This document shows positions 1,249 through 32,120 of a DNA stretch of 64,000 nt, one piece after another (position 1 is the stretch's first letter; each line of letters opens with the position of its first letter). The notes under the pieces were generated by a model. It was not told where the DNA came from, made no database searches, and saw only the letters and a program-made list of their open reading frames with translations. This DNA is from an uncultured Planctomycetia bacterium (GTDB taxonomy: Bacteria; Omnitrophota; Gorgyraeia; 2-02-FULL-51-18): contig CAYSKO010000002.1 of the NCBI GenBank assembly GCA_964431835.1, forward strand, positions 22,802 to 86,801. The letters are read 5' to 3'. A program made the translations under genes and the position numbers.

Positions 1249-1488
1249 ATGAACAAGCTCGTCACCGCATTCCAGAAGAACAAGCTTGAGGAAGTGCGTG
1301 TGCACGTCAAAGAACTCAAAGGGTACGATCTGGTCGATATCCGGGTCTATACGGCGCTTGGGGAAGGCGAGGACATGATTCCGACGGGCAAAGGACTGTC
1401 GATCGACGTGTCCCGCTTCCTGGAGCTAAAAAAGGCGATACTCGATACGGAACAAACGTTGAGGGAGAACAATTTACTTAATGAGTAA
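1249..1488 (+). CDS. Small PC4/YdbC-like putative ssDNA-binding protein (79 aa)
   Basis: Pattern KGYDLVDIRVY...PTGKGLSIDVSRFLELKKAI matches the bacterial PC4-like fold signature (KG..VDIR.Y...P.KGLSI...F..L). Its last 8 nt overlap the next gene's start. Confidence 0.45.
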   Translation: MNKLVTAFQKNKLEEVRVHVKELKGYDLVDIRVYTALGEGEDMIPTGKGLSIDVSRFLELKKAILDTEQTLRENNLLNE

Positions 1489-2281
1489 GCTTATGGAGGC
1501 GCTGAAAGCGAGCGCCAAAGACAAACCCGCCGTCTCCGAAGAGACCGGCGCACGACCCGTCAAGACTGATTACGAAATGACTCAAGAACAGCTAGCCGAG
1601 ATCTATTTCTCCGCCGCCGAAAAGAAGCCGCAGTCTCCGCCGCCGATGATCATCAAAGTCATCGAACGGCCTGGAATCGCGAGCGTGATCCCTTGGATTA
1701 TCACCTCGATTGCCTTCCTTATAACGGCGTTCAGCCTTTTTTCCACCAAACGCGTCTTCGTCGACATCAAGGTAATCGACGAAAAAAGCGGCTATTTCGC
1801 CTCTGCGGAGCCGCCAGCTGCCGTCGTGGAGCCCGAGGCTCCGGTGGATCCCGGCGCGACGGAGGTTTCGATGCGCGGGGCGATGCTCGAAGGCGCAGGC
1901 CGGCTGAAGAGCGAGTTTTCGAACGAAGGGCTCATGTTGGTCAATACGTCGGTTGCGCCTTTCGCGCGGGCGAGCGTGCAGATGGCTCCGACGGATCTCT
2001 CGGACCGCAAGATCGTCTTTTACGCGCGCGGTGTACGGGGCGGGGAGAAGCTCGGTTTCTCCCTGAAGGACAAGAACAACAACTCCGCGTTCGAACGCGG
2101 CAAGGTGTATCCGTTTCCGGACGGCCTTTCGACCGAATGGCGCCGGGCCGAAATACCGCTCGAAGGCACGGCCAAGGAATTCAATCCGCGCAAGGTGATC
2201 AGCATGCGCTTTGAATTCGGGTCCAACGTCGACAACAAAGCGGGCGACACCGTGTACGTGAAAGACTTGAGGATCGTCTAA
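1481..2281 (+). CDS. Membrane-anchored hypothetical protein with an extracytoplasmic beta-rich domain
   Basis: One TM helix (IASVIPWIITSIAFLITAFSLF) followed by about 180 aa of beta-rich sequence. Translationally coupled to the preceding small gene and 5 nt upstream of the ParA-CBM48 gene. Confidence 0.5.
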   Translation: MSKLMEALKASAKDKPAVSEETGARPVKTDYEMTQEQLAEIYFSAAEKKPQSPPPMIIKVIERPGIASVIPWIITSIAFLITAFSLFSTKRVFVDIKVIDEKSGYFASAEPPAAVVEPEAPVDPGATEVSMRGAMLEGAGRLKSEFSNEGLMLVNTSVAPFARASVQMAPTDLSDRKIVFYARGVRGGEKLGFSLKDKNNNSAFERGKVYPFPDGLSTEWRRAEIPLEGTAKEFNPRKVISMRFEFGSNVDNKAGDTVYVKDLRIV

Positions 2282-2286
2282 GACTC

Positions 2287-3363
2287 ATGAACGTCATCGC
2301 GGTCTCCAATCAAAAGGGCGGGTGCGGCAAAACGACGACCGCGATCAATCTCGCGGCGTCGCTGGCGTCGCTCGGCCGCCGCACGCTTTTGATCGACCTC
2401 GACCCGCAAGCTCACGCGACGTTCGGATTGGGTTTCCGCGGCGAACCGCAGAGGCTCTCGATGTACAACGTGCTAACCGAGCAGGAAGGAAAGCGACAGA
2501 GCTTCCTCGAAAGCGTCATCGTTTCGGTTTCGGCGTGCTTCGACCTGGCGCCCTCGCATGTTCTTCTCAGCACAATCGAGCAAGAGTTCACGACCAAAGA
2601 CGAATCGATCCAGCGCCTGCGCGAACTCCTCTCAAGCCTGTCGTTTCCGTACGATTACGTCGTGATCGACTGTCCGCCCTCCCTCGGGTTCCTCACGTTC
2701 AACGCCCTCCGTGCGGCGGAGACCGTGATCGTGCCTATCGAGCTTTCTTCGTTCTCCTTGATGGGCGTGGGTAAGCTTCTCAGTATGATCGAGCTTCTGA
2801 AGGTGAAGCTACAGCACACGCCGCGCGTGTTTGCCCTGCCGACGATGATCGACATGCGCACGCGCTTCTCGCGCCGGATGATGGACGAAATCCGGGGGGC
2901 GTTCGGGGAGCACGTGCTGAACAGCGCGATCCGCCAGACGATCTCGATCCGCGAATCGCAGGCCGCAGGCCGGCCGGTCGTTTCTCTCGATCCAAAATCG
3001 AAGGGCGCGATCGACTATCTCGTCCTCGCACAGGAAATCGCAAACAAGCTTCCCTCGGCCGCCGCCTCGCAGATAGAGGCGCCTCCCGCGGTGACGCCTG
3101 CCGACCGTTTGAAAGACTTCTCATTCCGGGCGATGGGCGCGCGTGAAGTGCATGTGGTCGGCGACTTCAACAACTGGCGTGTTTCGACGAACTCGCTCCT
3201 CTGGCAGAAAGAAGAGGGTGTATGGCAGAAGAAAGTCCATCTCGGACCGGGGCGCTACCGCTACAAGTTCGTCGTGGACGGCCGTTGGACCACCGATCCC
3301 CGAAACCAGGAAATCGAACCCAATCCGTACGGCGGGGTCGACTCGGTCCTCGAAGTCGATTAA
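2287..3363 (+). CDS. ParA/MinD-family P-loop ATPase fused to a C-terminal AMPK-beta-type glycogen-binding module (CBM48)
   Basis: Deviant Walker A NQKGGCGKTTTAINLAASLA and a ParA-type Walker B region VVIDCPPSLGFL. C-terminal 80 aa (VHVVGDFNNWRV...RYRYKFVVDGRWTTDP) match the AMPK1_CBM/CBM48 consensus (VYVSGSFNNW...YKFFVDGQW..DP). Confidence 0.8.
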   Translation: MNVIAVSNQKGGCGKTTTAINLAASLASLGRRTLLIDLDPQAHATFGLGFRGEPQRLSMYNVLTEQEGKRQSFLESVIVSVSACFDLAPSHVLLSTIEQEFTTKDESIQRLRELLSSLSFPYDYVVIDCPPSLGFLTFNALRAAETVIVPIELSSFSLMGVGKLLSMIELLKVKLQHTPRVFALPTMIDMRTRFSRRMMDEIRGAFGEHVLNSAIRQTISIRESQAAGRPVVSLDPKSKGAIDYLVLAQEIANKLPSAAASQIEAPPAVTPADRLKDFSFRAMGAREVHVVGDFNNWRVSTNSLLWQKEEGVWQKKVHLGPGRYRYKFVVDGRWTTDPRNQEIEPNPYGGVDSVLEVD

Positions 3364-3373
3364 AATAGGGCTC

Positions 3374-3919
3374 ATGCCCAAGCCCACGTTCCGCCTCCTC
3401 GAATCGAACCTCATTTACAAAGGTAGCCGCGCGTCCTTCGTGAAGGACCGCTTCGAATTGAGTCGCGCGCCGGGCAAGATCGTCACGCGCGTGGTGCTGC
3501 GTCATCCGGGCGCGGTCGTGATTCTTCCTTTCTCGGCTCCGGGGAAAATCCTGCTCCTGCGCCAATTCCGCTACGCGACCCGCGGCGACATTGTCGAGGT
3601 GCCGGCCGGAACCATCGAAGCCGGCGAACGCCCGCTCGTCTGCGCCAAGCGCGAACTTGAAGAGGAGACCGGTTTCAGGGCGAGCCGCTGGAAATTTCTC
3701 ACGCGCTTCTATCCCGCGCCCGGTATCTCGGACGAAGTGATGCATCTCTACCGTGCCGACGGGCTCAAGCCGGGCCGGAAGAATCTGGATCACGACGAAT
3801 TTCTGGAGCATTTCGAAATCCCGCTCGAACGGGCGGTCGCTCTGGCTCGGAGCGGAAAGATCCGCGACGGAAAGACGCTCGTAGCGCTCCTTTGGGCCGC
3901 GCGGTTCGGCGCGAAATGA
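3374..3919 (+). CDS. NUDIX hydrolase (ADP-ribose pyrophosphatase-like)
   Basis: Nudix box GERPLVCAKRELEEETGF. Start is placed at the ATG just after the parA stop; the longer ORF-track start at 3143 overlaps parA in another frame. ATGA overlap with the next gene. Confidence 0.75.
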   Translation: MPKPTFRLLESNLIYKGSRASFVKDRFELSRAPGKIVTRVVLRHPGAVVILPFSAPGKILLLRQFRYATRGDIVEVPAGTIEAGERPLVCAKRELEEETGFRASRWKFLTRFYPAPGISDEVMHLYRADGLKPGRKNLDHDEFLEHFEIPLERAVALARSGKIRDGKTLVALLWAARFGAK

Positions 3920-5004
3920 ACGACGCCAAGCGGTATCAGAGGGAAAAGCTGCGGCTTTATTTTCTCGGAGTCGCGGTCGATCTGTGTGCGCTCCTCGTCC
4001 TTCAGGCGACCGGCGCTTCGGAAAGGGTAGCCCTCGCCGCCGCCGGCGCTCCCTTCAGGCTCGCGGAAATTGCCCTCTACATGTTGGTTTTCTTCCATGG
4101 ACCCTGGCTCGCGGGGCTTCCACTCCGTTTCTACGCGGGCCACGTGGTGGAGCGGCGATGGAATCTCTCCACCCAAGCCTCCGGAGCGTGGTTCTTCGAC
4201 GAGTTTAAACGCTGGGTGCTGGGCCTCGCGTTCTTCGTGCCGACGATGACGGGACTCGTTTGGGTCATGGATTCCTGCGGATCCTCCTGGTGGATGGCGG
4301 CCGCGGCAGGATGGACGCTCGTCACGCTTTTTGTCTCCACGATCTTTCCGACCGTGATTATTCCTATTTTTTACCCGGTGAAACCCGTGACAGGTGAGTT
4401 GCGCGAGCGGATCGCCGAGCTTTTCGCGCGTTTCGGAGTCCGCCTCGTGGGCGTCTACGAACTCGCGCTGTCGAAGAAAACGAAGAAAGCCAACGCCATG
4501 CTTGCGGGGATCGGAAACGCGCGCCGCGTGTACCTTGGAGACACGCTTCTTGGCGGATTCGAGCCCGATGAAACACGGATGGTGGTCGCACATGAGCTCG
4601 GACATCACGTCCTCCGCCACATTCCGAAGGGACTCGCTTTCCATACCGTAGCCGCCGCAGCAGGTTTTTTTCTTCTCGACCGGATCGGCGGCCCCCTCGT
4701 ACGCGCTGCGGGTGGATACGCTCTTTGGGATCTCGCCGTTTTTCCAACCGTCGCCCTTCTTTCTACATTGGGCGCGCTCGCGTTCGTTCCCGCGCAGAAC
4801 GCGTTCTCCCGCCGCATGGAGTATGAAGCCGACGCGTTCGCCTTGAAAGCTTTCCCTTCGCGCGCAACGTTCGAATCGCTGATGCGCCGCCTGGCGTCGA
4901 AGAACCTTGCCGACACCGACCCCGACCCCTTCGTAGAATTCGTTTTTTACAGCCACCCGTCCATTTCGAACCGCGTGAAACGCGCGCAAAGTCTGCCGTC
5001 GTGA
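3916..5004 (+). CDS. M48-family zinc metallopeptidase (HtpX/Ste24-like), polytopic membrane protein
   Basis: Several TM segments plus HELGHHVLRH (HExxH) and a downstream Glu-containing motif (EYEADAFAL) typical of the M48 family. Confidence 0.7.
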   Translation: MNDAKRYQREKLRLYFLGVAVDLCALLVLQATGASERVALAAAGAPFRLAEIALYMLVFFHGPWLAGLPLRFYAGHVVERRWNLSTQASGAWFFDEFKRWVLGLAFFVPTMTGLVWVMDSCGSSWWMAAAAGWTLVTLFVSTIFPTVIIPIFYPVKPVTGELRERIAELFARFGVRLVGVYELALSKKTKKANAMLAGIGNARRVYLGDTLLGGFEPDETRMVVAHELGHHVLRHIPKGLAFHTVAAAAGFFLLDRIGGPLVRAAGGYALWDLAVFPTVALLSTLGALAFVPAQNAFSRRMEYEADAFALKAFPSRATFESLMRRLASKNLADTDPDPFVEFVFYSHPSISNRVKRAQSLPS

Positions 5005-5489
5005 AGCGACTAGGAGCGGTCTTCCTCGCGCTGTCGCTTTTGACGGGAACGCCGGCGGGAGCAGAGGGCCGCCGTCAGGCGATCGTCTCCTGGGTAATCG
5101 ACGGCGACACGTTCCAGACCTCCGATGGCGAGCGGGTGCGCCTTTTGGGCATCGATTCCCCGGAATACCAGCCGCATCGCCGGAAGATCGATCCGTTCGG
5201 CAAGGAAGCGTCGGAATTTGCCAAAAAAACGCTCACCGGGAAGAAGGTGCTCCTCGAAGGGGACGTGGAACCCAAGGACAAGTACGGCCGGACGCTCGCG
5301 TACGTGTATCTTCCTGACGGGACCTTCGTGAACGAGAGCATCGTCGCCCAAGGACTCGCCAAAAGCCGCTATTACAAGCCCAACGGAAAGCACCGCGAGG
5401 AACTGAAAGCGGCTCAAAAGGCGGCTAAGAAGGCCAAGAAGGGCATTTGGAGCCTCGAGGCGTCTTCCGCCGGGCGCGGGTCTTCTTGA
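5001..5489 (+). CDS. Secreted thermonuclease (SNase/micrococcal nuclease family)
   Basis: Signal peptide followed by the SNase motifs VIDGDTF...RVRLLGIDSPE...GRTLAYVY. Confidence 0.8.
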   Translation: MKRLGAVFLALSLLTGTPAGAEGRRQAIVSWVIDGDTFQTSDGERVRLLGIDSPEYQPHRRKIDPFGKEASEFAKKTLTGKKVLLEGDVEPKDKYGRTLAYVYLPDGTFVNESIVAQGLAKSRYYKPNGKHREELKAAQKAAKKAKKGIWSLEASSAGRGSS

Positions 5490-5534: not shown

Positions 5535-6128
5535 ATGATTAAAGAAGCCAAAATTTCCTCGGTAGTTTCTCTTTTTCCGCTGCCGCAGTACGTCGTCGTG
5601 CTCGAGGACGTGCAGAAGACACGGCTCGTCCCTATCTGGATCGGCGTGAACGAGGGGAACGCCATCGCGCTCGAGATGCAGGGCGAAAAGTTTCCGCGCC
5701 CCCTGACGCACGACCTCATGGTGAATATGCTGAAGACACTCGGCGCCGAGATCGAGAAGGTCGTCGTCAGCGATCTCCGCGACAACAGCTACTACGCGAT
5801 CATTTTCGTGAAACACGACGGGAAGACGATCGAGATCGACGCGCGGCCGTCGGACTCCCTGGCGCTGGCCGTGCGCGTGCACTGCCCGATTTTCATCGAC
5901 GAGAAAGTGTTGAACAAGTGCCCCCAGATCGACGGCTCGATTACGCAGGACGACGTTGATAAGTTCAAGGACATGCTGAAGACGATGTCCTCGGAAGAGT
6001 TCTTTAAGACTCTGGAAGAATCTCCCGCGGCGGACGGCCCCGATCTCAAGGCTTTCTCCGCGTTCGGCGAGGACGAGGAAGATGACGAGGAAACCGAAGA
6101 CGAAGAGGAAGAAGATGACGAGCGCTGA
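5535..6128 (+). CDS. Bifunctional nuclease domain protein (DUF151/BFN) with an acidic C-terminal tail
   Basis: LVPIWIGVNEGNAIALEMQGEKFPRPLTHDLM is the hallmark BFN motif. Start chosen at MIKEAK; the ORF-track start at 5493 is also possible. C-terminal poly-Glu/Asp tail. Confidence 0.6.
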   Translation: MIKEAKISSVVSLFPLPQYVVVLEDVQKTRLVPIWIGVNEGNAIALEMQGEKFPRPLTHDLMVNMLKTLGAEIEKVVVSDLRDNSYYAIIFVKHDGKTIEIDARPSDSLALAVRVHCPIFIDEKVLNKCPQIDGSITQDDVDKFKDMLKTMSSEEFFKTLEESPAADGPDLKAFSAFGEDEEDDEETEDEEEEDDER

Positions 6129-13440: not shown

Positions 13441-13851
13441 ATGATTAACCTGCTCGGATCCAAGCGCTTGGGCAACCAAAAAGGCTTCACGCTGCTTGAA
13501 ATCCTGATCGTCATCATCATCCTCGGCATTCTCGCCGCGTTGGCCATTCCGGTGTATTCGGCCGTCCGCGAAAAAGCCGTGAAACAAGAAGGTTACCAGC
13601 AGTTGGCGGCGACGCGTGAAGCGCAGCAGCGTTACTTTGCGGCCTACAACGCGTACACCAACGATACGGGTCTGCTCGAATACGACCCGAACGCCGTAGC
13701 GGCGGGCGTGTCCAAGCACTACGACTACACGTTCCCTGCGGCGTCGGCGACGGCGTTCACGGTTCGTGCGACGCGTAATTCGACGGCGCCTACGCCGCCG
13801 GCCGCGTACTACCTCGAAGTCAACGAGGCGGGAACGATCACGGAAGTCTAA
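13441..13851 (+). CDS. pilA: Type IV major pilin (prepilin with class III signal peptide)
   Basis: Leader ending ...NQKG followed by FTLLEILIVIIILGILAALAIPVY (G-1, F+1, E+5). Strong SD GGGGGA, own AT-rich upstream region and a rho-independent terminator downstream. Confidence 0.8.
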   Translation: MINLLGSKRLGNQKGFTLLEILIVIIILGILAALAIPVYSAVREKAVKQEGYQQLAATREAQQRYFAAYNAYTNDTGLLEYDPNAVAAGVSKHYDYTFPAASATAFTVRATRNSTAPTPPAAYYLEVNEAGTITEV

Positions 13852-13857
13852 AGAAAC

Positions 13858-13903
13858 CGGAAAGCCAAGCGGTCCTTACAGGCCGCTTGGCTTTTCTTTT
13901 TTG
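13858..13903 (+). terminator. Rho-independent terminator after the major pilin gene
   Basis: Perfect hairpin aaagccaagcgg...ccgcttggcttt followed by tcttttttg. Confidence 0.65.
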
Positions 13904-13915
13904 AGGGCCCGAAGC

Positions 13916-14326
13916 GTGCGAAACAGTCAAGATGGAATGACTTTGACGGAGATCACGATCGTCTCCGTGATCCTCGTGATGATGGCGGGCCTGGCGATTC
14001 CCAGTTATTTCAAAACCGTCGAGGAATCCCGCTCGAGCGAAGCGAAGGCGAATTTGAGCACGCTCCATTTCGCGCAGAAAATCTTTCGCGAGAGCAACTC
14101 GGCGAAGAAATTTTATCCCGTCGGCGGCGGGACGAAGACCACGACCTCCGACCTCACCGAAATCACGACCCAGCTGAACGTCGATATTTCCCCGAATTTT
14201 TATAATATCGAGATCGAAACCGCCGGTGGCGGAAGCACCACCGACTACACAGCGACCGCCACTCGCTCGAACGACTCGACCCGCAGATACCGAGTAGACG
14301 AATCCGGCGTCGTCATCAAGCTCTAA
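13916..14326 (+). CDS. Minor (pseudo)pilin with prepilin-type N-terminus, GTG start
   Basis: Short leader MRNSQDG then MTLTEITIVSVILVMMAGLAIPSYF (Gly-1, Glu+5). First gene of a seven-gene overlapping operon. Confidence 0.65.
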   Translation: MRNSQDGMTLTEITIVSVILVMMAGLAIPSYFKTVEESRSSEAKANLSTLHFAQKIFRESNSAKKFYPVGGGTKTTTSDLTEITTQLNVDISPNFYNIEIETAGGGSTTDYTATATRSNDSTRRYRVDESGVVIKL

Positions 14327-14336
14327 GGGAGCCGTT

Positions 14337-15473
14337 ATGAGGAAAGTCCCAGCTGTTCCGAAAGCGCCGATCCTGGCGCTTTTTATGCTTTCCGCGGTGT
14401 CCGCGGCCCTCGCGACGGACGTGGATAAATCCACGGAATATCCCGTGCCGTCCGGCATCTACGACGGGATCACTGTTTCTCGCTACCTCCGCATGGGAAT
14501 TCCCACGGCCGCGGTTCCCGACGTGGACGCCCACACCCCGAACGCCGGCACGGCAAATCCGGCGACCGCCTCCCAGGCGGCCCTGACCATCAACGGCAAC
14601 GTTTATATCCATCCGCTCGATCTCAATCTCACGGACGCGCAGCCGCCGGTCCCTTACGTGCCCCTGGATACCGACGGCGGCGCCGGAGCCACAGTACCGC
14701 TTCGCGACGTGGTCATCGACGAGAAGCTGACGGTGGACGGCACGACGTTCCGCGTCGTTCCGCTCAATTGGTGGGGCAATAGCCACTGGACTGCCGTGAA
14801 TGTCCCCGGTGCCGTCACTGGTGACAGCCGCGGCAGCGAATTCCAGGTCAACGGTGACATTCACGCCTACGCGTATCGCGCTTCCCAGAGGTATCCCGAT
14901 CAAAACGACACGCGCGTCCATTTCGGGCCAACGAAGGTAAGCGGTGTCTCGTGGCTCGACATGCGGGCCAAGACAGGCATGATCGACGCCAATCAGTGGG
15001 CGCACGGCATGAGCACGCTTTATTTCCGTGCCGATCCGATGCTCGTTTTGAACGGCTACTCGCGAGCCAACGTCGGTATCGGCACGACGAATCCCACTTA
15101 TCTTCTGCAGGTGGGCGATCCGGGCTCCGGCCTGCAGGCGATCGCGCATTCATGGGACATTTATAGCTCGCGCGCCTACAAAACCGACATCCGCCCTTTT
15201 TCGCCCGCCGATTACAGATTGGCCGCCGACAGAGTGGGGGATCTGAACCTCGTTCGTTTCCGTTACAAAGAGGACAAGCCAGGCGACAAGAAAATACTCG
15301 GATTCATCGCCGAGGAAGCTCCAAATGAAATTCTCTCACCGGACGGCAAAGCCGTGAGCCTCGGGGACACGCTGGGTTTCCTGCTGGCGGCCATCAAAGG
15401 CCTCAAAGCCGAAAACGACGCGCTCCGGACCGAGATCGAGCGGCTCGAAACCGCCGGGGGGAGGCTTTTGTGA
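14337..15473 (+). CDS. Secreted tail-fibre-like protein with C-terminal peptidase S74 intramolecular-chaperone domain (paralogue 1 of 3)
   Basis: Sec signal peptide. Tail-fibre motif ANVGIGTTNPTYLLQV, then the S74 Ser/Lys dyad context SWDIYSSRAYKTDI, LGFIAEEAPNEILSPDG and a C-terminal coiled coil LKAENDALRTEIERLE. 4-nt overlap with the next gene. Confidence 0.75.
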   Translation: MRKVPAVPKAPILALFMLSAVSAALATDVDKSTEYPVPSGIYDGITVSRYLRMGIPTAAVPDVDAHTPNAGTANPATASQAALTINGNVYIHPLDLNLTDAQPPVPYVPLDTDGGAGATVPLRDVVIDEKLTVDGTTFRVVPLNWWGNSHWTAVNVPGAVTGDSRGSEFQVNGDIHAYAYRASQRYPDQNDTRVHFGPTKVSGVSWLDMRAKTGMIDANQWAHGMSTLYFRADPMLVLNGYSRANVGIGTTNPTYLLQVGDPGSGLQAIAHSWDIYSSRAYKTDIRPFSPADYRLAADRVGDLNLVRFRYKEDKPGDKKILGFIAEEAPNEILSPDGKAVSLGDTLGFLLAAIKGLKAENDALRTEIERLETAGGRLL

Positions 15474-16591
15474 GGCGGCTCGCTTTCATCCTCCTCTTGG
15501 GTTTCGCACTGACGCAGGACGCGCGCGCGGCCGAAATCGACGTTACCACGTATTACGACGCCCCTTTCGGCGATTACAAAGAATTCCGGCTCTCCGGCAC
15601 TCTCGCCGCAGGGCTCGTCGACGCCGATCCGGGTCCTCTTTTGATCGGCGCCGGAAGCTACACGGCCGCTTTCTTCGGCGGCTTCAACGTGTGGAACAAT
15701 GACATTCCCGGGCACCTCGGGGCGAGCCGCGGCGGAGGGCTCACGGTCACGGGAAATCTCGACATTCAGGACGCCCTCGGGATCTCGCTTCTTTACGTGA
15801 ACGCGACGACCGACCGCGTCGGCATCGGGACGCGGGCGCCCGCAGCGGCGCTCGACGTGCGCGGCGAAGCCAAGGCGATCAACCTCTTCGCGTATGCGTC
15901 TCCGCTCGACCCGACCCAGCCGTACGCGGAAATGAACACCGAGGTCACGCCAGAGCGCTTCGGGGCGGGCTACTGGTGGAACCAGACGTTCCCGCATAGA
16001 TACCGTTTCTGCACGATGCACATCGACGGCGATCCGATCGCGATCCAATCGATCGACAAGAGTGCGATGGGGCTGGGAGGCTTGGGCCGAGGCCAGCTCA
16101 TCATAAACGGCATGCCCGTCGGCTACGTCACGTACGACGCGAAAGTGATTCTCGTTGTGGGAGAACCCCAGCAGAACCAAGTCCTCGACCCCGATCCCGA
16201 CGAGGCTACCGGTGACGGAGACGGGGATCCGAATCAGGGCGACTATCCCGTGGCGCTGCCGAAGCCGCAGGCCTTCGCCCATCAGTGGTATCAGTTCAGT
16301 TCCCGCGAGTACAAAAAGGACATCGTGCCTTTGATGCCCGCGGAGTATGGCACGATTCTCTCTTCGCTTGCGGTGATGGATGTCGTTCGCTACCGTTTCC
16401 ATTCGGAAAGCGGCACGACGAAACCGCACGTCGGGTTGATCGCCGAAGACGTGCCCGAGGACATGGCGCAGTCCGACCGCAAATCCATCGGACTAGGCGA
16501 GCAGGCCGCGTTTCTCCTGGCGTCCGCTAAAGCGCTCAGGGGCGAACAGGACGACATGCGCGCCCGCGTCGAAAGGCTGAAAAAATCATGA
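15470..16591 (+). CDS. Secreted tail-fibre-like protein with C-terminal peptidase S74 intramolecular-chaperone domain (paralogue 2 of 3)
   Basis: Signal peptide; DRVGIGTRAPAAALDV; QWYQFSSREYKKDIVP; VGLIAEDVPEDM; LRGEQDDMRARVERL. 4-nt overlaps on both sides. Confidence 0.75.
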   Translation: MRRLAFILLLGFALTQDARAAEIDVTTYYDAPFGDYKEFRLSGTLAAGLVDADPGPLLIGAGSYTAAFFGGFNVWNNDIPGHLGASRGGGLTVTGNLDIQDALGISLLYVNATTDRVGIGTRAPAAALDVRGEAKAINLFAYASPLDPTQPYAEMNTEVTPERFGAGYWWNQTFPHRYRFCTMHIDGDPIAIQSIDKSAMGLGGLGRGQLIINGMPVGYVTYDAKVILVVGEPQQNQVLDPDPDEATGDGDGDPNQGDYPVALPKPQAFAHQWYQFSSREYKKDIVPLMPAEYGTILSSLAVMDVVRYRFHSESGTTKPHVGLIAEDVPEDMAQSDRKSIGLGEQAAFLLASAKALRGEQDDMRARVERLKKS

Positions 16592-17754
16592 ACGCGCGCT
16601 TTTTCGCAACGATCGCTCTTGCCGCATTCATCGCAGCGCCTTTGCCGGCGCTGGCGGACGACGTGACGGTTCGAACGACCTATCCGAACCGCTTCGGCGA
16701 ACACACGAACGCCGACACCGAAAGCTCTCTAACGGTGGGGTCTCTCACGCAGGGCGCCTCGACGAACGTCTTCGGGGACGTCTCGATCGTGGGCGATCTC
16801 GTCATCACGAAGCCGACGAACGGCCTCGTACGCATCGCCCCCTCGCACGGCCCTTACCAGGAAGACGGCCTGCGCGTGCACCCCAACGGAAGCATTTCGA
16901 TCGGCAGCAACGTCGTCCTGCCGGCCGCGAATCCGCCCAAACTAAAGTCCCATACGACGCTGAAGGGCCGCCGACTTTACGCGTACGGCGATCCCGCGGA
17001 CACACACACGGTGTACGGGCTCATGCAGGGGTATCTCGATACTTCAGCAAGTTCCTATCATCTCCAGCGCAAAGCGCTCTTCGCGTCGCGTCCTGTCGCC
17101 GGCGGCAACATCATCGATCCCGCCGCCGGAACGTACGGGCCTCTCCGCATCGACGGCAGAGAAGTGCAAATGGGCCCACAGTACGATCCGAACGTACCGA
17201 CGGGACGTGGAAACCCCTCCGATCCTTGGTTTACAGGAATGCTCGAGCGGGTCATCATCGGCACGAACGAGATGTGGCTCGATCCGGTCGATACGCCGGA
17301 ACCTGAGATTTTCCTTCAGGTGGGCCATCCGACCGATCCCGACCCCACCGATCCCGAGCGCATCCCCGGCATAAACGGTGCTCCAGACGAGCCGCCGCAG
17401 CCGACCGGCGGCGCGGCGAGTAACTGGCGGGTTTTCAGCTCGCGTGAGTATAAGAAGGACATCGTGCCGTTCGACGCCGCCGCGCAGGCGGGCGCGCTCG
17501 AGGCGATCTCCCGGCTCGACGTGGTCCGCTACCGCTTTAAGAGCGAGCCCGTGAACGCCAAGCCGCATACCGGCGTGATCGCGGAGGACCTCCCCGCCGC
17601 CATCCGCTCGGCGAGCGGCAAAGGCCTGGACCTTGGCCAGGCGTATTCCTACGCCGCGGCGGCGCTCAAAGCGCTGAAGACCGAGAACGACGTGCTCAAG
17701 ACCCGTCTCGAAAAGCTCGAAGCGGAAGCGGCGGCCCGAAAGGCGCGGCCGTGA
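16588..17754 (+). CDS. Secreted tail-fibre-like protein with C-terminal peptidase S74 intramolecular-chaperone domain (paralogue 3 of 3)
   Basis: Signal peptide; NWRVFSSREYKKDIVPF; TGVIAEDLPAAI; LKALKTENDVLKTRLEKLE. The C-terminus is closely related to paralogue 2. Confidence 0.75.
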   Translation: MNARFFATIALAAFIAAPLPALADDVTVRTTYPNRFGEHTNADTESSLTVGSLTQGASTNVFGDVSIVGDLVITKPTNGLVRIAPSHGPYQEDGLRVHPNGSISIGSNVVLPAANPPKLKSHTTLKGRRLYAYGDPADTHTVYGLMQGYLDTSASSYHLQRKALFASRPVAGGNIIDPAAGTYGPLRIDGREVQMGPQYDPNVPTGRGNPSDPWFTGMLERVIIGTNEMWLDPVDTPEPEIFLQVGHPTDPDPTDPERIPGINGAPDEPPQPTGGAASNWRVFSSREYKKDIVPFDAAAQAGALEAISRLDVVRYRFKSEPVNAKPHTGVIAEDLPAAIRSASGKGLDLGQAYSYAAAALKALKTENDVLKTRLEKLEAEAAARKARP

Positions 17755-25887: not shown

Positions 25888-26778
25888 ATGAGCGACCAAA
25901 CACCCAAACCCGACAGCGGCCGTAAGCTTTTCTTCGGACTCTTCGTTTTTCCACTCGTCATCGTCGCGGGTATGATCGCGATGGTGCTGACGATCGTGCT
26001 TCTTACGCACGAGGACGAAACCCCTGAGTCGCTCGTGGCCGCCATCAAGACCGGTTCCGAACGCAAGCGCTGGCAGAAGGCGAGCGAGCTTTCGAACGAG
26101 CTGAACCGCCGTAAACCCGGTCCGCGCGACGCGGCTCTTGCCCGCGACATGATCCTCATGCTCGGCGACGCCGCGCGTTACGACGCGAAGACTCGCTCCT
26201 ACATGGCGGCCGCACTCGGCCACTTCAAAGGGGAGGACGGGGTCGAGGAAGCACTCCGCCGCGCTCTTTCCGCGGACGCGGACTCCGAGGTCCGTTTCTA
26301 CGCGCTTTGGTCCATCGGGACGATCGGTTCCAAGGCGGCCATCCCGGACATCCTCTCGCTCCTTCGAAGCGGCGACGAAGCGGTGCGCGTCAACGCGGTT
26401 TACGTGCTGGGCGCCATCGGCGACCCGTCTTCGACTGGCCCGCTCCGCGTGATGCTCGACGACGCGGCGCTGGACGTCCGCTGGAACGCCGCGCTCTCGC
26501 TGGCGCGTCTCGGGGACCCTTCCGGCTTTCCGGTCCTCGTCGCGATGCTCGACCGGTCTCAATTGGAAGGAAAGAGTCTTCCCGAAGACCGCGTGGAACG
26601 CGTCATGATCAATGCCGTCAAAGGTTTAGCCTTGATTCCGGGGGCCGACTCCATTAAAATCTTGGAATCCGTTTCGCGCGGCGAAAAGAATCTCCGTGTG
26701 CGGCAGGCCGCGATGGATGCGTTGGCGTATCAAAAGAATCAGGACTCTGGTAAAATGGGGACTTCCGAAAAGGCATGA
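25888..26778 (+). CDS. Membrane-anchored HEAT-repeat (PBS-lyase type) protein, translationally coupled to the Rieske gene
   Basis: N-terminal TM and repeated ...VR..A..ALG.IGDP... HEAT-like units. ATGA overlap with the Rieske start. Confidence 0.6.
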   Translation: MSDQTPKPDSGRKLFFGLFVFPLVIVAGMIAMVLTIVLLTHEDETPESLVAAIKTGSERKRWQKASELSNELNRRKPGPRDAALARDMILMLGDAARYDAKTRSYMAAALGHFKGEDGVEEALRRALSADADSEVRFYALWSIGTIGSKAAIPDILSLLRSGDEAVRVNAVYVLGAIGDPSSTGPLRVMLDDAALDVRWNAALSLARLGDPSGFPVLVAMLDRSQLEGKSLPEDRVERVMINAVKGLALIPGADSIKILESVSRGEKNLRVRQAAMDALAYQKNQDSGKMGTSEKA

Positions 26779-27362
26779 GCGAACCTACACCTCCCGCGAA
26801 CGTCCAGCCCGTACCCGCGACGCCGAAACCGGCCGTCGCCGCCGTACCGTCGACACCGAACGCCGGTGGCAGCGCGAAAATGGATCGCCGCGGTTTCTTT
26901 TCCTGGTTCGGCTTCGCCTGGCTCAGCTTCGCCGCGGCGACCGGCGGCGCCCTTTCCATCCTCCTCCGTTACCTTTTTCCGAACGTCGTGTTCGAACCGC
27001 CGACCTCCTTCAAGGCCGGCTTTCCCGGGGATTACGAAATCGGCATCGTGGACGAACGCTGGAAGGAAAAGTTCGGCGTCTGGCTCGTCAAGACGGCGGA
27101 GGGGATGTACGCGCTCTCCACGACGTGCACCCATCTTGGCTGCACGCCAAACTGGCAGAGCGGCGAAAACAAGTTCAAGTGCCCGTGTCACGGTTCGGGC
27201 TTCTACAAGACCGGGATCAACTTCGAGGGCCCGGCGCCGCGCCCGCTCGAACGCTACCGTATCCAGCTGGCAGACGACGGCCAAATCATGATCGACAAGT
27301 CCAAAAAATTCCAGCAGGAAAAGGGCGAGTGGAACAGCTCCGAATCGTTCCTTCCTATATAA
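26775..27362 (+). CDS. Rieske [2Fe-2S] subunit of a cytochrome bc-type complex (Tat-exported)
   Basis: Twin-arginine leader MDRRGFFSW; Rieske boxes CTHLGC and CPCHGS. Confidence 0.85.
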   Translation: MSEPTPPANVQPVPATPKPAVAAVPSTPNAGGSAKMDRRGFFSWFGFAWLSFAAATGGALSILLRYLFPNVVFEPPTSFKAGFPGDYEIGIVDERWKEKFGVWLVKTAEGMYALSTTCTHLGCTPNWQSGENKFKCPCHGSGFYKTGINFEGPAPRPLERYRIQLADDGQIMIDKSKKFQQEKGEWNSSESFLPI

Positions 27363-27374
27363 GGGACAGACGCC

Positions 27375-28196
27375 ATGGCCGATAACCCGACCCCCACGCC
27401 CCCGCAGCCTAAGAAAGAAAAATTCAATCTCGGGAAATACGTCACCGAGACTCAGGTCTATAAGTCGATGTTCCGGCACGGCTACTCCACCTCCGACCGT
27501 GACCGGGCGCTTTCGGTTATGACGAACGTCTTCTTCCATCTGCATCCGGTGAAGGTCCGCAAATCCGGCGCGCGTTTCGGTTTCACCTGGTGCGCGGGCG
27601 GCTTGTCGTTCTTCGTTTTCCTCACGCTCGTCGTCTCCGGGATCCTCCTCATGTTCTACTACCGCCCCACGGTCGAGCATGCGTACAACGACATCATGGC
27701 GCTGCGCGAGCACGTTCCTTTCGGCATCATGCGCGAGCTGCACCGGTGGGGCGCGCACGCGATGATCATCACGGTGTGGTTGCACATGTTCCGCGTGTTC
27801 ATGACCGGCTCTTACAAACCGCCGCGCGAGTTCAACTGGATCATCGGCGTCATCCTGCTCGTTCTGACGATGCTCTTGAGCTTCACCGGCTACCTGCTTC
27901 CGTGGGATCAGCTGGCGATGTGGGCCATCACGGTCGGCTCGAACATGGCCCGCGCGACCCCGTTCCTCGGCCACGAGGGTCCCGGCGCCCAGATGCTCGC
28001 AATCGGCGACATTCAGCTTGTGACCTCCGGCAGCGACGTGCGTTTCGCGCTTCTCGGCGGGCGCTTCGTCGGACAGGGTGCCCTCCTTCGTTTCTACATC
28101 CTCCACTGCGTGGCGATCCCGACCGCGCTCGTCATCCTGATGTCGGTGCACTTCTGGCGCATCCGCAAGGACGGCGGCATTAGCGGCCCGCTTTGA
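27375..28196 (+). CDS. Cytochrome b, N-terminal (b6-like) subunit
   Basis: Four TM helices with conserved heme-ligand histidines ([15 protein letters not shown]..., YILHCVAIP). Confidence 0.85.
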
Positions 28197-29278
28197 TGCT
28201 CGACTCGTTCAAGGCACTCGTCAACGCCGTCTCGTCCCCGGTCACCATCTTCACGGCGGGGACGATCTTCTTCGCGGTCTTCGTGAGTTTCCCGCGTGTG
28301 ATGACCTCGCCGCCGGTCGCTCTGGCGATTCTCGCGCTCTCGCTCGCTTTCTTCGGCGTGGGCCTGACCGACGAGCACTTCCGCGGCATCGTGAGCACCC
28401 CCGACAACGTGCCGATCGTGGGCATGATGTTCATCTTCGGCTTCTTCACCTGGTATTCGATGCGCAAGGCCGTCGTGAACGACATGCGCATGGAGCGGGG
28501 AGAGCCGACGGTGGAGGCCGCCGAGGCGAACGAGAAGGTTCTCGTTTTCCCGTACCTCATCTTCATCGAGTTCGTCGTGGCGCTCGCGTACGCGGTCGGC
28601 CTCGTCGTTTGGTCCATTTTCCTAAAAGCGCCGCTCGAAGAGCCGGCGAACCCGACCGTCTCGCCCAACCCCTCAAAGGCGCCGTGGTACTTCCTCGGCC
28701 TTCAGGAAATGCTCGTTTATTTCGACCCGTGGATAGCGGGCGTTCTTCTGCCGACTTTCATCATCATCGGCCTATGCGCGATCCCGTTCATCGACCGCGA
28801 CCCGTCCACCTCGGGTTTTTACTCCTTCAAGAAGCGCAAGTTTGCGATCACGGCGTACCTCTTCGGGTTCTGGATCCTTTGGAACCTCCTCATCATCATG
28901 GGCACGTTCATGCGCGGCCCGAACTGGAACTTCTTCGGTCCGTTTGAAAAATGGGACGTCCACAAGGTGGTCCCGCTGATGAACGTGAATCTTTCGGAAC
29001 TCCTTTGGATCAAGCTCATGAACGTGGGCCTACCGAAGTTCTGGCTCGTGCGCGAGCTTCCGGGCATCCTTCTCGTCGGGGCGTATCTCATGATCCCGCC
29101 GGCGATTCTCGCGAAGACCGCGTTCAAGGACGTCTACAAGAAACTCGGCGCGGCGCGCTACAGCATCCTCGTGATGCTGATCCTCATGATGCTCGCTCTG
29201 CCCATCAAGATGTACCTGCGCTGGGCGCTGAATCTCCAATACATCGTCGCGATCCCTGAATTCTTCTTCAACATCTAG
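28193..29278 (+). CDS. Cytochrome b, C-terminal (subunit IV-like) subunit with an extended C-terminus
   Basis: PEWY-region variant [12 protein letters not shown] and multiple TM helices. At 361 aa it is much longer than a canonical PetD. Confidence 0.7.
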
Positions 29279-29279
29279 C

Positions 29280-32120
29280 ATGCCCCCTAAACCCAACCCC
29301 ACTCTTTACAGCATTTCCAAGACCTTCGTCTGGTTCGGGCTCATCAGCCTTCTTCTGACGGCTTCGCTCGCGGCGATCGTGATGACCGACTACAAGCGGG
29401 AGTGGAAAGACTGGCAGAAGAAGTTCATGAAGCTCAAGTCCGACAAGGCGCAGGCCGAACTCAAAATGGCCGAGGGGAAGATCGACAAAGCGCGTCTCGA
29501 GGAGCTCACCAAGCAGCAGGCCGCGGCCGAGAAAGCCGTCCAAGGCCGCCGTGACGACCTGAAGGCTCTCGAACGCGAGATCGGTCGCCTTTCCACCGAA
29601 GCCTCAAAAGTTAAAAAATCTTCTCAGAACGGCAAGCAGTTCGAGGATTCCTACCGCTACTACTACGAAGAATACGCCTCCCACCACGACAGTCGGGCCG
29701 CGGAATATAAAAAGAAGCTCGACGAGATCCGTCCGAAAGTCGCGGCCGACAGGCTCGAACTCGAAAAACTCGAGAAACAGCTGGAGGCTAAAGAGAAAGA
29801 ACGCGAGGCGATCCTCGCCGAGAGCAAGAGGCTCGAGAAGGAGATCGAGAATCTGTACGACGAGAAGCGCCGCGCCGACCGCAAGCTTGAAAGCGCGAAG
29901 CCGAGCGTCGTTAAGGACGTCCTGAACGCGCCTATGCTCGACTTCATCGCGCCGACGCTCGAGGTCCAGCAGATCGTTCTCGATAACCTGTACGACGACT
30001 ACCATTTTGCGAAGGCTCAGAAGGTCGATCGCTGCACGACCTGCCATCTGGGTATCGACCAGAAGGGTTTCGAGGACGCGCCCCAGCCTTTCAAAACTCA
30101 CCCCAAGATGGAGCTTTATCTCGGAGCCGACTCGCCGCACCCCGTCGAGAAATTTGGCTGCACGACCTGCCATAGCGGCAACGGCCACTCCGTCAGCTTC
30201 AAGGATTCCGCCCACACGCCCTCTTCGAAGAAGCAGGCGGAGGAATGGGCGAAGAAGTACAATTGGAAGGAACTCGAGAAATGGGAGCACAAGATGCTCC
30301 CGAAAGATCACGTTCAGGCGTCCTGCTCGAAGTGCCATCATGGGGCGGCGGAGGTTCCTCAGGCCGACAAATTGAACCGGGGCCGTAAGATCGCCGAAAC
30401 CCACGGCTGCATGAACTGCCACAAGATCGACGGCTTCGAGAACCGCTACAAGGTCGGTCCGGACCTCCGGAACGTAAAGACGAAGCTCGACGGGGACTGG
30501 ATCGCCCGCTGGGTCGACGACCCCCGCGATTTCCGTCCCAAAACCCAGATGCCCCGCGTTTTCCATCTGACCAATACCTCCTCGCCCGAGGACGTGAAGC
30601 GCAACCACGCGGCCATCCATTCGATTTCGGCCTACCTCATGAAGCATTCCGGGGAAATCGAGCTGAAACAGCCTCCCGTGAAGGGGAATGCGGGGAACGG
30701 CGAAAAACTCGTGAAGACCGTCGGCTGCACGGGCTGCCACACGGTCGCCGGTGTGGAAATCAACAGCTTCGGCCCCGATCTCAACGGTCTCGGTAGCAAA
30801 GTCACTGAGAAGTGGCTCTTCAACTGGCTCAAAGACCCGAAGCACTTGGCCGACACGCGCATGCCTTCTTTACGCCTCTCCGACCAGGAAGCCGCCGACA
30901 TCGCCGCGTACCTCTTGGCTCAGAAAAACGAGAAGTTCGAGGCCAAGAAGCTTCCCGCGGCGGACCCCAAGGTGGTCGACGCCATGATTCTTGAGAACCT
31001 TCAGGGCACCCTGCGTCGCTCCGAAGCCGAGGCTAAACTGAACGAAATGTCTCCCGAGATGAAGCTTGAGTTCCTCGGCCAGAAGACGATCGCCCACCAG
31101 GGCTGTTACACCTGCCACCAGATCAAGGGGTTTGAGGACGCCAAGCCCATCGGTGCCGATCTCTCTAACGAAGGCGCGAAAGACATCCATCAGTTCGACT
31201 TCGGCTTCGTGCACAACATCGGCCACACGCGGCACGACTGGATCAATCAAAAAATCAAGGACCCGCGGATATTCGACCTCGGCAAGGAAAAGGCCTATTA
31301 CGAGAAGCTCCGCATGCCGCAGTTCAATTTCTCGGAAGAGGAAATTGACGCGCTGACAACGTTTGTTCTGTCGTTGACCCAGGAACAAATCCCGCTCGAA
31401 ATGCAGAAACGCCTCGACTCCAAGGATCTCGAAACCGAGAAGGGCCGCCTCCTCGTTTCTCAACTGAACTGCGTCGGTTGCCATACGCTCGACGGCAAGG
31501 AAGGTGCGCTTCGCTTGAACGCCGAGGATCCCGGCTCCGTTCCTCCGACGCTGATCGACGAGGGCGCGAAGGTCCAAGAGGACTGGCTGCATACGTTCCT
31601 CGCGCACCCGACGACCATTCGTCCGTGGCTCACGTACCGCATGCCCACGTTCGGATTCGACGAAGAGGAGCTTCGCACGATGGTCCATTACTTCGCGCAC
31701 CTGAACGAACAGACGCTTTCGTACCAGGGCCACCCTACGCCGAAATCCACTCCCGAGAAGATCGAGGCGGGCCGCGCGCTCGTCGAGAAGCTTCAGTGCG
31801 AGAAGTGCCACCAGGTGAGCGCCGAAAGCGCTGCCATGGGCACGTCCTTCCTTGCGCCAGATCTTAACCTCACCAAGAACCGCCTCAAGCCGGAGTGGGT
31901 GAAGGACTGGGTCGCCGATCCGCAAAAGCTCGAGCCCGGCACGATGATGCCCGCTTTCTTCACCGAAGGGGAACCTTCGCCGATAACGGACGTCCTCGAA
32001 GGCGACGCCGGGAAGCAGATCGAGGCGATCCGCGATTACCTCTTCGTCTACCAAAAGGGGGACGCCAAGGCCTCCCCGCAGGACGATTCCTCCAAAAATT
32101 TGATTGCAAACACTCAGTAA
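29280..32120 (+). CDS. Membrane-anchored octaheme c-type cytochrome with a long coiled-coil stalk (bc-complex c subunit)
   Basis: N-terminal TM, about 200 aa of Lys/Glu-rich coiled coil, then eight CxxCH motifs (CTTCH x2, CSKCH, CMNCH, CTGCH, CYTCH, CVGCH, CEKCH). Confidence 0.8.
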   Translation: MPPKPNPTLYSISKTFVWFGLISLLLTASLAAIVMTDYKREWKDWQKKFMKLKSDKAQAELKMAEGKIDKARLEELTKQQAAAEKAVQGRRDDLKALEREIGRLSTEASKVKKSSQNGKQFEDSYRYYYEEYASHHDSRAAEYKKKLDEIRPKVAADRLELEKLEKQLEAKEKEREAILAESKRLEKEIENLYDEKRRADRKLESAKPSVVKDVLNAPMLDFIAPTLEVQQIVLDNLYDDYHFAKAQKVDRCTTCHLGIDQKGFEDAPQPFKTHPKMELYLGADSPHPVEKFGCTTCHSGNGHSVSFKDSAHTPSSKKQAEEWAKKYNWKELEKWEHKMLPKDHVQASCSKCHHGAAEVPQADKLNRGRKIAETHGCMNCHKIDGFENRYKVGPDLRNVKTKLDGDWIARWVDDPRDFRPKTQMPRVFHLTNTSSPEDVKRNHAAIHSISAYLMKHSGEIELKQPPVKGNAGNGEKLVKTVGCTGCHTVAGVEINSFGPDLNGLGSKVTEKWLFNWLKDPKHLADTRMPSLRLSDQEAADIAAYLLAQKNEKFEAKKLPAADPKVVDAMILENLQGTLRRSEAEAKLNEMSPEMKLEFLGQKTIAHQGCYTCHQIKGFEDAKPIGADLSNEGAKDIHQFDFGFVHNIGHTRHDWINQKIKDPRIFDLGKEKAYYEKLRMPQFNFSEEEIDALTTFVLSLTQEQIPLEMQKRLDSKDLETEKGRLLVSQLNCVGCHTLDGKEGALRLNAEDPGSVPPTLIDEGAKVQEDWLHTFLAHPTTIRPWLTYRMPTFGFDEEELRTMVHYFAHLNEQTLSYQGHPTPKSTPEKIEAGRALVEKLQCEKCHQVSAESAAMGTSFLAPDLNLTKNRLKPEWVKDWVADPQKLEPGTMMPAFFTEGEPSPITDVLEGDAGKQIEAIRDYLFVYQKGDAKASPQDDSSKNLIANTQ

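Follow-up and report, generated by a model that had tools for sequence, protein, structure and literature searches.

A gene near the start of a 64,000-nucleotide stretch of DNA from an uncultured, presumed Omnitrophota bacterium (hereafter the window; GenBank assembly GCA_964431835.1, contig CAYSKO010000002.1, positions 22,802 to 86,801) encodes a Soj/ParA-type deviant-Walker-A ATPase that is joined, through a disordered linker, to a C-terminal CBM48/AMPK-beta-type module. Directly upstream lies the gene of a single-pass membrane protein, here called TM266. We tentatively propose that the fusion protein acts as an ATP-switched, bivalent glycogen tether or positioner whose recruitment and turnover would, in Omnitrophota, be controlled at the membrane by TM266, a reading to which we give slightly less than an even chance. 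A bolder form of the proposal is rather unlikely: the pair would be the first dedicated bacterial glycogen-granule positioner, the ATPase itself carrying the cargo domain and TM266 sensing an extracytoplasmic glycan and activating or recruiting the ATPase through a ParB-like peptide. If true, the state or position of the envelope would be coupled to the site of the carbon store.

Bacteria generally rely on ParA/MinD ATPases to place large cargo such as chromosomes, plasmids, carboxysomes, and chemoreceptor arrays. Glycogen is among the most widespread storage polymers and, to our knowledge, no positioning or inheritance machinery has been described for it. A full-text literature search found no publication on a ParA-CBM48/AMPK1_CBM fusion or on ParA-type glycogen positioning, and glycogen is absent from a 2025 review of how bacteria position their organelles (PMC13052382). 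Among current candidates for a machinery that would anchor or distribute glycogen stores in bacteria, we regard the fusion as the best. It would depart from the standard ParA design in two respects, a cargo domain built into the ATPase and a membrane-anchored partner with a ParB-like peptide, and the proposal would offer a function for an Omnitrophota-conserved gene that carries no annotation beyond “AAA family ATPase” or “chromosome partitioning protein.”

A ParA-type ATPase fused to a CBM48 module

The open reading frame (ORF) starts with ATG and its translation contains KGGCGKTT, VHVVGDFNNW, and YRYKFVVDGRWTTDP, the motifs quoted in a first-pass annotation of this DNA, which had described a ParA ATPase fused to CBM48. 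The fusion is real and far beyond chance. Both domains exceed the curated Pfam cut-offs, with AAA_31 at residues 1 to 176 (171.8 bits against 27; CbiA scores 73.1 bits), AMPK1_CBM at residues 282 to 357 (51.0 bits, E=1.7e-13, cut-off 26.8), and CBM_48 at residues 278 to 337 (31.5 bits against 22.4), the last two being the families for which that annotation had proposed a Pfam scan.

Nor is the fusion a one-off, as a look at its distribution, also proposed at first pass, makes clear. A protein search returned at least 120 protein clusters at 64 to 75% identity, all of 355 to 373 amino acids (aa) and all with PF16561; where named, these are called “AAA family ATPase” or “chromosome partitioning protein” and come from Candidatus Omnitrophica/Omnitrophota, apart from one Eisenbacteria label. 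In a scan of one genome per GTDB species, a relative was encoded in at least 194 species genomes. Loci and residue conservation were analyzed in the best 80 of these 194 species (44 to 100% identity to the window protein), and, apart from one that is cut off by a contig end, all 80 loci align with essentially the whole length of the query. The hosts are mostly Omnitrophota metagenome-assembled genomes (MAGs), many deposited as “uncultured Planctomycetia”; besides these, there are MAGs of Thermodesulfobacteriota, Syntrophorhabdales, or “delta proteobacterium,” with contigs of up to 2.97 Mb, and a single MAG of Binatia. Since the Thermodesulfobacteriota-type sequences cluster with those of Omnitrophota at ~62% mean identity, lateral transfer of the fusion between the two types of host is suggested.

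In the AlphaFold2 (AF2) model (mean pLDDT confidence score, 74.5), a Soj-like alpha/beta domain is followed by a linker, disordered at residues 259 to 273 (pLDDT <50), and by an all-beta C-terminal module with eight strands over aa 275 to 357 (pLDDT 86 to 91). Linker length varies from 10 to 53 aa among the 80 species.

The closest affinities of the ATPase domain are with chromosomal ParA/Soj proteins. Against PDB sequences, the N-terminal 268 aa matched Myxococcus xanthus ParA best (8RAY, 172.7 bits), followed by the Soj proteins of Helicobacter pylori and Thermus thermophilus; Foldseek comparison of the AF2 model recovered Soj/ParA structures at E values of 2e-21 to 1e-18 with a target TM of 0.76 to 0.81. 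With these proteins (8RAY, 6IUB/8JMJ, 1WCV; Foldseek E ~1e-20, 36 to 39% identity) the fusion shares the fold, the deviant Walker A motif with its signature lysine, and a hydrophobic pocket for the N-terminal peptide of a partner. The xKGGxxK[ST] pattern that characterizes ParA/MinD ATPases is present as KGGCGKTT, and K10, G11, G12, C13, K15, and T16 of this motif as well as D37, D39, and D128 are found in 80/80 species. Where the fusion has the invariant Cys13 (window positions 2323 to 2325), a P-loop position at the dimer interface, Soj/ParA proteins usually have a valine; the cysteine could conceivably have a redox or metal role.

The nearest NCBIfam model is that of the ParA family partition ATPase, yet the protein reaches only 116.4 bits against an equivalog cut-off of 180 and so falls short of the chromosomal ParA profile. 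It also stays far under the cut-offs of the MinD (TIGR01968, 51 bits against 213), BcsQ (TIGR03371, 71 against 158), tyrosine autokinase (TIGR01007, 38 against 108), RepA, and SopA profiles. Pfam CBP_BcsQ scores 39 bits, BcsRQ structures are among the Foldseek matches, and the similarity to McdA structures amounts to just 55 bits. The AF2 model has no C-terminal MinD-type amphipathic membrane-targeting helix, the C terminus being the all-beta module, and the C-terminal tyrosine cluster of bacterial tyrosine kinases (BY-kinases) is likewise absent from the protein. In the annotated part of the window (about bases 1 to 59,600; the motif scans cover all of it), no minC, minE, bcs, or other polysaccharide-synthase genes lie near the fusion gene, and no carboxysome genes are among its neighbors, which speaks against an McdA.

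Two further analogies were considered and rejected. A BY-kinase/CapAB arrangement, with a membrane activator and a P-loop protein, is contradicted by the subthreshold profiles, the missing tyrosine cluster, and Soj being the best structural match. A CpaE/TadZ/FlhG-like role, by way of a type IV pilus cluster 2.8 kb downstream, does not agree with the occurrence of pilM in only part of the window’s clade and never in the others.

With chromosomal ParA/Soj as the best match and the ParB-peptide pocket conserved (see below), the protein could be a chromosome-partition ParA to which CBM48 is an accessory, for example tying segregation to carbon status. One Omnitrophota clade, moreover, has the gene 0.8 to 1.7 kb upstream of mnmG (gidA), the vicinity of which is a classic origin-proximal neighborhood. 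On the other side, a ParB-box motif scan of the 3322 ORFs in the 80 loci gave a single, spurious match of 85 aa, none of these loci has a second deviant-Walker-A protein by motif scan, motif scanning of the whole window revealed no GERRxRA-type ParB box and no further deviant Walker A, and no ParB domain or second ParA occurs among the window genes annotated to about 59.6 kb. The absence of a genuine ParB-box ORF and of a second deviant-Walker-A protein from the loci and the window argues against a parAB operon. Compared with chromosomal ParA/Soj, the fusion not only has no adjacent ParB and scores below the ParA_partition cut-off (116 against 180) but also does not conserve the central DNA-binding basic residues, adds CBM48 on a flexible linker, and adjoins the gene of a membrane protein rather than a DNA-binding one. 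We therefore regard a chromosome-partition function as highly improbable.

Putative glucan-binding module and glycogen genes

When the C-terminal 105 aa were compared alone with the PDB, the best matches were the AMPK beta1 and beta2 modules (E ~1e-8), followed by SEX4, pullulanase, and GlgB. In the alignment to rat AMPK beta1 (1Z0M/1Z0N), W297, K327, W334, and G349 correspond to W100, K126, W133, and G147, and Y348 and D352 to L146 and N150. The first four, equivalents of glycogen-contacting residues, are kept in 80/80, 78/80, 79/80, and 79/80 species, respectively; in AMPK beta1, glycogen binding is lost in the W100G and K126Q mutants and reduced in W133L and G147R (PMC6274970). N346 (80/80) and D352 (78/80) are conserved as well. 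The AMPK/SNF1 beta modules (1Z0M, 1Z0N, 2F15), the best solved match, thus have all four contact residues in common with the window protein, which differs from them in being bacterial, in its P-loop ATPase instead of a kinase scaffold, and in having Y or F at position 348 in place of L146 and D at position 352 in place of N150.

An exhaustive HMMER search with the module alone gave 10,098 representatives at E≤1e-3, ranked by the score summed over repeats. By this ranking, the best-scoring relatives are tandem arrays of 2 to 18 related modules at 25 to 46% identity, the nearest of them at 35 to 46%, and a few short single-module proteins reach 63 to 68%. Ten relatives were inspected: four carry alpha-glucan domains (a GH13 alpha-amylase, GH57 twice, and a glucodextranase C-terminal domain), and the remaining six are pure CBM48 arrays. 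Because relatives reside in GH13/GH57-type alpha-glucan proteins, the sequence places the module within the starch- and glycogen-binding CBM48s. Its ligand is most likely cytoplasmic glycogen (alpha-1,4/1,6-glucan). The glycogen or alpha-glucan binding put forward at first pass is therefore plausible, given contact residues present in 78 to 80 of the 80 species and relatives fused to GH13/GH57. The search also uncovered a very large environmental set of tandem CBM48 arrays (2 to 18 modules), many of them of ~480 aa with four copies and no catalytic domain.

A ligand other than glycogen, either a protein (for example, the TQEQLADIYFS segment of TM266) or a nascent envelope polysaccharide in the manner of BcsQ, is very doubtful in our view. 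E-set/CBM48-like folds are reused for protein contacts, as a weak match to a type IX secretion system (T9SS) plug protein illustrates, TM266 does have this second conserved cytoplasmic motif, and some BcsQ similarity exists (Pfam CBP_BcsQ and BcsRQ structures, as above). The AMPK beta1 glycogen-contact residues are, however, nearly invariant over 80 species, the nearest relatives are found in alpha-glucan enzymes, no bcs or polysaccharide-synthase genes are nearby, and the NCBIfam BcsQ score is well under its cut-off.

According to the first-pass annotation, a lack of glycogen metabolism genes in the organism would refute a glycogen function. For the relatives, this objection does not hold. 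Fourteen Omnitrophota loci, from the 45-to-50%-identity groups, have a glucose-1-phosphate adenylyltransferase gene (glgC) on the opposite strand 3 to 5 kb downstream (L036, L037, L038, L041, L045, L046, L053, L055, L060, L062, L063, L065, L066, and L076; for example, L036 10576-11814 [-] and L053 11208-12485 [-]). The L036 GlgC passes the NCBIfam equivalog cut-off (540 bits against 537), and that of L053 scores 533. In the clade without TM266, the gene order is parA-CBM48, LOG, mnmG, radical-SAM, glgC. A survey of Omnitrophota MAGs, in addition, lists glycogen synthesis for 9/12 genera; for Kappaea, Aadella, and Orphnella it reports trehalose synthesis and none of glycogen (PMC8542988). The window itself has no glycogen gene among those annotated up to about 59.6 kb, and a tblastn search of the window with GH13 and GH57 proteins matched only the CBM48 module.

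The membrane protein TM266 and the proposed mechanism

A membrane-anchored, beta-rich protein encoded 5 nucleotides (nt) upstream of the fusion gene had been noted at first pass as a possible adaptor, and the linkage proved to be conserved. A profile of the TM266 family found its gene immediately upstream of the fusion in 53/81 loci, including 31/33 of the window’s clade, the other two being cut at a contig edge. It is also upstream in distant Omnitrophota clades whose ATPase is only 44 to 50% identical. Family members are named just “hypothetical protein,” with Candidatus Omnitrophica as the organism label apart from one Eisenbacteria.

TM266 has one strong hydrophobic segment (Kyte-Doolittle 19-residue maximum, 2.15), separated by a variable linker from a C-terminal beta-sandwich (AF2 pLDDT, 93 to 98). 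Foldseek relates this sandwich to CBM30 (1WMX, 1WZX, 2C24), CBM4-2, and CBM11 at E values of 2e-7 to 5e-6, with a target TM of only 0.45 to 0.56, and its Pfam CBM30 match is subthreshold (18.7 bits against a cut-off of 27), though CBM30 is among the precomputed assignments of some homologs. The charge flanking the helix (net +1.6 N-terminal to it and +0.55 C-terminal) modestly favors an N-in, C-out orientation, in which the sandwich would face outward. Two N-terminal motifs would then be cytoplasmic. The first has the consensus M-S-K-(L/I)-(I/L)-E-(A/S/T)-L-(K/R/Q) and is predicted by AF2 to form a helix at residues 3 to 12. In the second, TQEQLA(D/E)IYFS, L38 and Y42 are invariant and T34, Q35, E36, A39, I41, and F43 are present in ≥90% of the sequences.

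The public call of TM266 is 262 aa long and starts at Met5 (MEALKAS...), the gene in locus L001 being called at 3349-4137 instead of 3337-4137. As homologs conserve the four residues that precede Met5 (window positions 1481 to 1492; MSKL/I...), the true start is probably at position 1481, and the public annotation would clip the first four residues of the ParB-like motif.

In M. xanthus, ParB binds ParA through aliphatic residues around one central Arg/Lys (L11, R13, L15, L18, I19) at its unstructured N terminus, and ParA L150, L152, L155, L187, and L192 form the binding pocket (PMC12462528). Mapped through the alignment to 8RAY, this pocket comprises Q99, L133, F135, F138, L170, and L175 of the window protein, L133, F135, and F138 corresponding to M. 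xanthus L150, L152, and L155, and L170 and L175 to L187 and L192. L133, F135, and F138 are invariant, L170 is conserved in 79/80 species, and position 175 is I, L, or M in 78/80. On the TM266 side, K3-x-I5-x-A7-L8 matches the spacing of ParB R13-x-L15-x-A17-L18; from this equal spacing we infer that TM266 is the activating and recruiting partner of the fusion ATPase. A loop of the ATPase, LSTIEQEF (aa 94 to 101; window positions 2566 to 2589), is equivalent to the segment around V116 that contacts ParB in M. xanthus ParA; its L94, T96, I97, E98, Q99, and E100 are invariant across the fusion family.

The following mechanism can be envisaged. ATP binding would produce a sandwich dimer, as expected from the family, that displays two CBM48 modules and so holds a glycogen particle bivalently, by avidity. 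The dimer interface would at the same time form the hydrophobic partner pocket. In Omnitrophota, the cytoplasmic N-terminal peptide of TM266 (MSKxIEALK, ParB-like) would dock into this pocket, recruit the glycogen-loaded dimer to the membrane, stimulate ATP hydrolysis, and reset the ATPase to monomers. The pair would thereby place glycogen granules relative to the cell envelope, and the extracytoplasmic CBM30/4/11-like domain of TM266 may set position or activity from outside. The analysis establishes the domain architecture, the conserved residues and synteny, the fold assignments, and the poor conservation of the canonical DNA-binding residues; from these we infer glucan binding, dimerization, peptide docking, membrane recruitment, and the physiological role itself. 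The fusion ATPase is comparable to MinD/MinE and BcsQ/BcsR in that it probably acts at the membrane, controlled by a small partner through a short peptide or helix; the fusion, besides having no minC, minE, or bcs genes nearby and scoring far below the corresponding profile cut-offs, differs from MinD in having no amphipathic membrane helix, so that its membrane contact would be indirect, through TM266.

The first-pass annotation had instead envisaged a tether to the nucleoid. H. pylori Soj (HpSoj) contacts DNA through K199, K227, K230, and K247 (PMC6393308), and M. xanthus ParA R238, the equivalent of K230, is required in that R238E abolishes DNA binding (PMC12462528). In the fusion family, the K230 position (220) takes A, T, S, D, or V and in no case a basic residue, and the K227 position (217) is Q, L, M, H, or V. 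The K199 position (196) is Q in 35, K in 27, E in 7, R in 6, and D in 3 of 80 species, and the K247 position (237) is K in 33, T in 12, E in 10, and R in 6 of 80. The basic residues by which Soj/ParA proteins canonically bind DNA are not conserved, the K227/K230 equivalents being never or rarely basic, so that the nucleoid as matrix is not supported.

An McdA-like system, with an ATP-bound dimer on chromosomal DNA and CBM48 modules holding glycogen granules that are spread and inherited with the nucleoid, nonetheless deserves consideration. The ATPase domain is closest to chromosomal Soj/ParA, positions 196 and 237 are K or R in 33/80 and 39/80 species, R216 (R or H) and K/R222 are conserved close to the lost positions, and the clades without TM266 would need another matrix. 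In other bacteria, polyhydroxybutyrate (PHB) and polyphosphate granules are tethered to the nucleoid (PMC13052382). The first-pass statement that PHB granules are positioned by ParA-like ATPases is not borne out by the same review, which credits the DNA-binding phasins PhaM, PhaF, and PhaH; these and AlgP serve storage granules (PHB, polyphosphate) that are positioned and inherited, as proposed here for glycogen, but they are passive DNA-binding tethers without an ATPase (PMC13052382). In McdA/McdB, too, a ParA-type ATPase serves a cytoplasmic cargo other than DNA, and a small partner gene lies next to it; there, McdB recognizes the cargo and McdA binds the nucleoid, whereas here the ATPase carries the cargo domain and the partner is membrane anchored. 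With position 220 never basic, position 217 as given above, and a conserved membrane-anchored partner upstream in most Omnitrophota loci, we consider a nucleoid-based system unlikely.

Alternatively, CBM48 could report glycogen status and modulate a ParA/MinD switch, the output of which would lie elsewhere, such as in the placement of the division site or of envelope machinery through TM266. The AMPK beta module is a glycogen sensor that inhibits the kinase (PMC6274970, PMC2642990), TM266 is modeled as an envelope protein with an outward, glycan-binding-like domain, and conservation is housekeeping-like (64 to 75% identity for the fusion versus 40 to 58% for its neighbors). On the other hand, there is no identifiable second cargo or effector, linkage is consistent for TM266 alone while type IV pilus genes, NUDIX, M48, and SNase are not constant, and a long flexible linker with bivalent modules fits tethering equally well. 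Such a sensor seems to us quite unlikely.

Several points weigh against the membrane-controlled glycogen tether that we prefer. About 26 loci have no TM266 gene within 6 kb, and the pocket residues are invariant there too, as is the LSTIEQEF loop, which a membrane-partner model does not explain. The ParB-like motif of TM266 is recognized by a short pattern, and Met1 may be cleaved off in vivo; the N-in, C-out topology depends on a modest charge bias and on the need for a cytoplasmic motif. Conserved R216 and K/R222 next to the lost DNA-binding positions, which leave DNA binding conceivable, the use of CBM48-like folds outside glycogen metabolism (as in the T9SS plug match), and the window’s lack of an annotated glycogen gene add to this. 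Also, the proximity of glgC may be inherited synteny and is no proof of a functional link.

The loci without TM266 fall into two clades. One, from Omnitrophota, has a purL-purQ context with LOG and mnmG downstream and housekeeping neighbors only. The other is Thermodesulfobacteriota-type and in 11 loci has a conserved 145-aa ORF 31 to 169 nt downstream (e.g., L068 7181-7618 [+]), which has no Pfam or NCBIfam match and may be the partner in this clade. Because such clades exist, what all members of the family share is the ATPase joined to the glucan-binding module; the membrane partner is either an Omnitrophota elaboration or, in the other genomes, encoded at a different site.

Locus organization and other window genes

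The coordinates of the fusion gene, TM266, and the flanking genes are given in Table 1. A Shine-Dalgarno-like GAGGA lies 13 nt ahead of the ATG of the fusion gene. The PC4-like gene is the probable first gene of the operon and is upstream in most loci of the window’s clade. Consensus scans indicated a promoter-like site at 987-1015 and a terminator-like site at 5460-5480, and found no plausible plus-strand terminator between the PC4-like and ATPase genes.

Table 1. Features of the fusion locus (window coordinates)
Feature	Position	Strand	Basis
ParA-CBM48 fusion gene	2287..3363	+	358 aa plus stop; Pfam AAA_31, AMPK1_CBM, and CBM_48 all above cut-off
Soj/ParA-type ATPase domain, aa 1-254	2287..3048	+	PDB sequence matches (8RAY, HpSoj, T. 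thermophilus Soj [TtSoj]); Foldseek
Deviant Walker A KGGCGKTT, aa 10-17, with signature Lys10 and invariant Cys13	2314..2337	+	Motif position, conservation
Predicted partner-peptide pocket, L133, F135, F138, L170, L175 (aa 132-175 region)	2680..2811	+	Equivalence to M. xanthus ParA
Flexible linker, aa 255-275	3049..3111	+	AF2 pLDDT; variable length across species
CBM48/AMPK-beta-type module, aa 276-358; key residues W297, K327, W334, G349	3112..3360	+	Pfam, 1Z0M/1Z0N alignment, AF2
TM266 gene, 266 aa, single-pass membrane protein	1481..2281	+	Conserved family member directly upstream of the fusion
Putative N-terminal ParB-like ParA-binding motif of TM266, aa 1-9	1481..1507	+	Family conservation, ParB spacing, AF2 helix 3-12
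Second cytoplasmic motif of TM266, TQEQLA(D/E)IYFS, aa 34-44	1580..1612	+	Conservation
Transmembrane helix of TM266, aa 66-88	1676..1744	+	Kyte-Doolittle; AF2 helix 66-87
C-terminal beta-sandwich of TM266, aa 125-266, CBM30/CBM4/CBM11-like, predicted outward-facing	1853..2278	+	pLDDT, Foldseek
PC4-like small protein	1249..1488	+	Pfam PC4, 33.4 bits; 3' end overlaps TM266 start by 8 nt
NUDIX hydrolase, ADP-sugar/NudE/YffH type	3377..3919	+	Pfam NUDIX, 67.8 bits; 13 nt downstream of the fusion

The NUDIX gene is directly downstream in about half of the loci of the window’s clade, a facultative association, and its product matches NCBIfam NudE and YffH below cut-off; a link to ADP-glucose turnover is only a lead. 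The NUDIX, M48 peptidase, staphylococcal-type nuclease (SNase), bifunctional nuclease (BFN), and pilM genes vary among the loci, and TM266 alone is consistently linked to the fusion. Within most of the window’s clade, the PC4-like gene and the BFN gene (5535-6128) hold their positions around the pair. RmuC (47-991) and SNase (5001-5489) genes are nearby, giving the surroundings the appearance of a DNA-metabolism neighborhood.

Farther along the window, three tandem paralogs (378, 373, and 388 aa; positions 14337 to 17754), each with a Peptidase_S74 (tail-spike chaperone) domain, come directly after type IV pilus genes and two pilin-like genes (13441-14326). The region from 26775 to 32120 encodes, in this order, a Rieske and cytochrome b pair, a cytochrome b C-terminal-like protein of 360 aa, and a multihaem-type cytochrome of 946 aa; haem A/O synthesis genes come next (33016-34766). 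These cytochrome and haem genes point to a respiratory chain in this presumed Omnitrophota genome.

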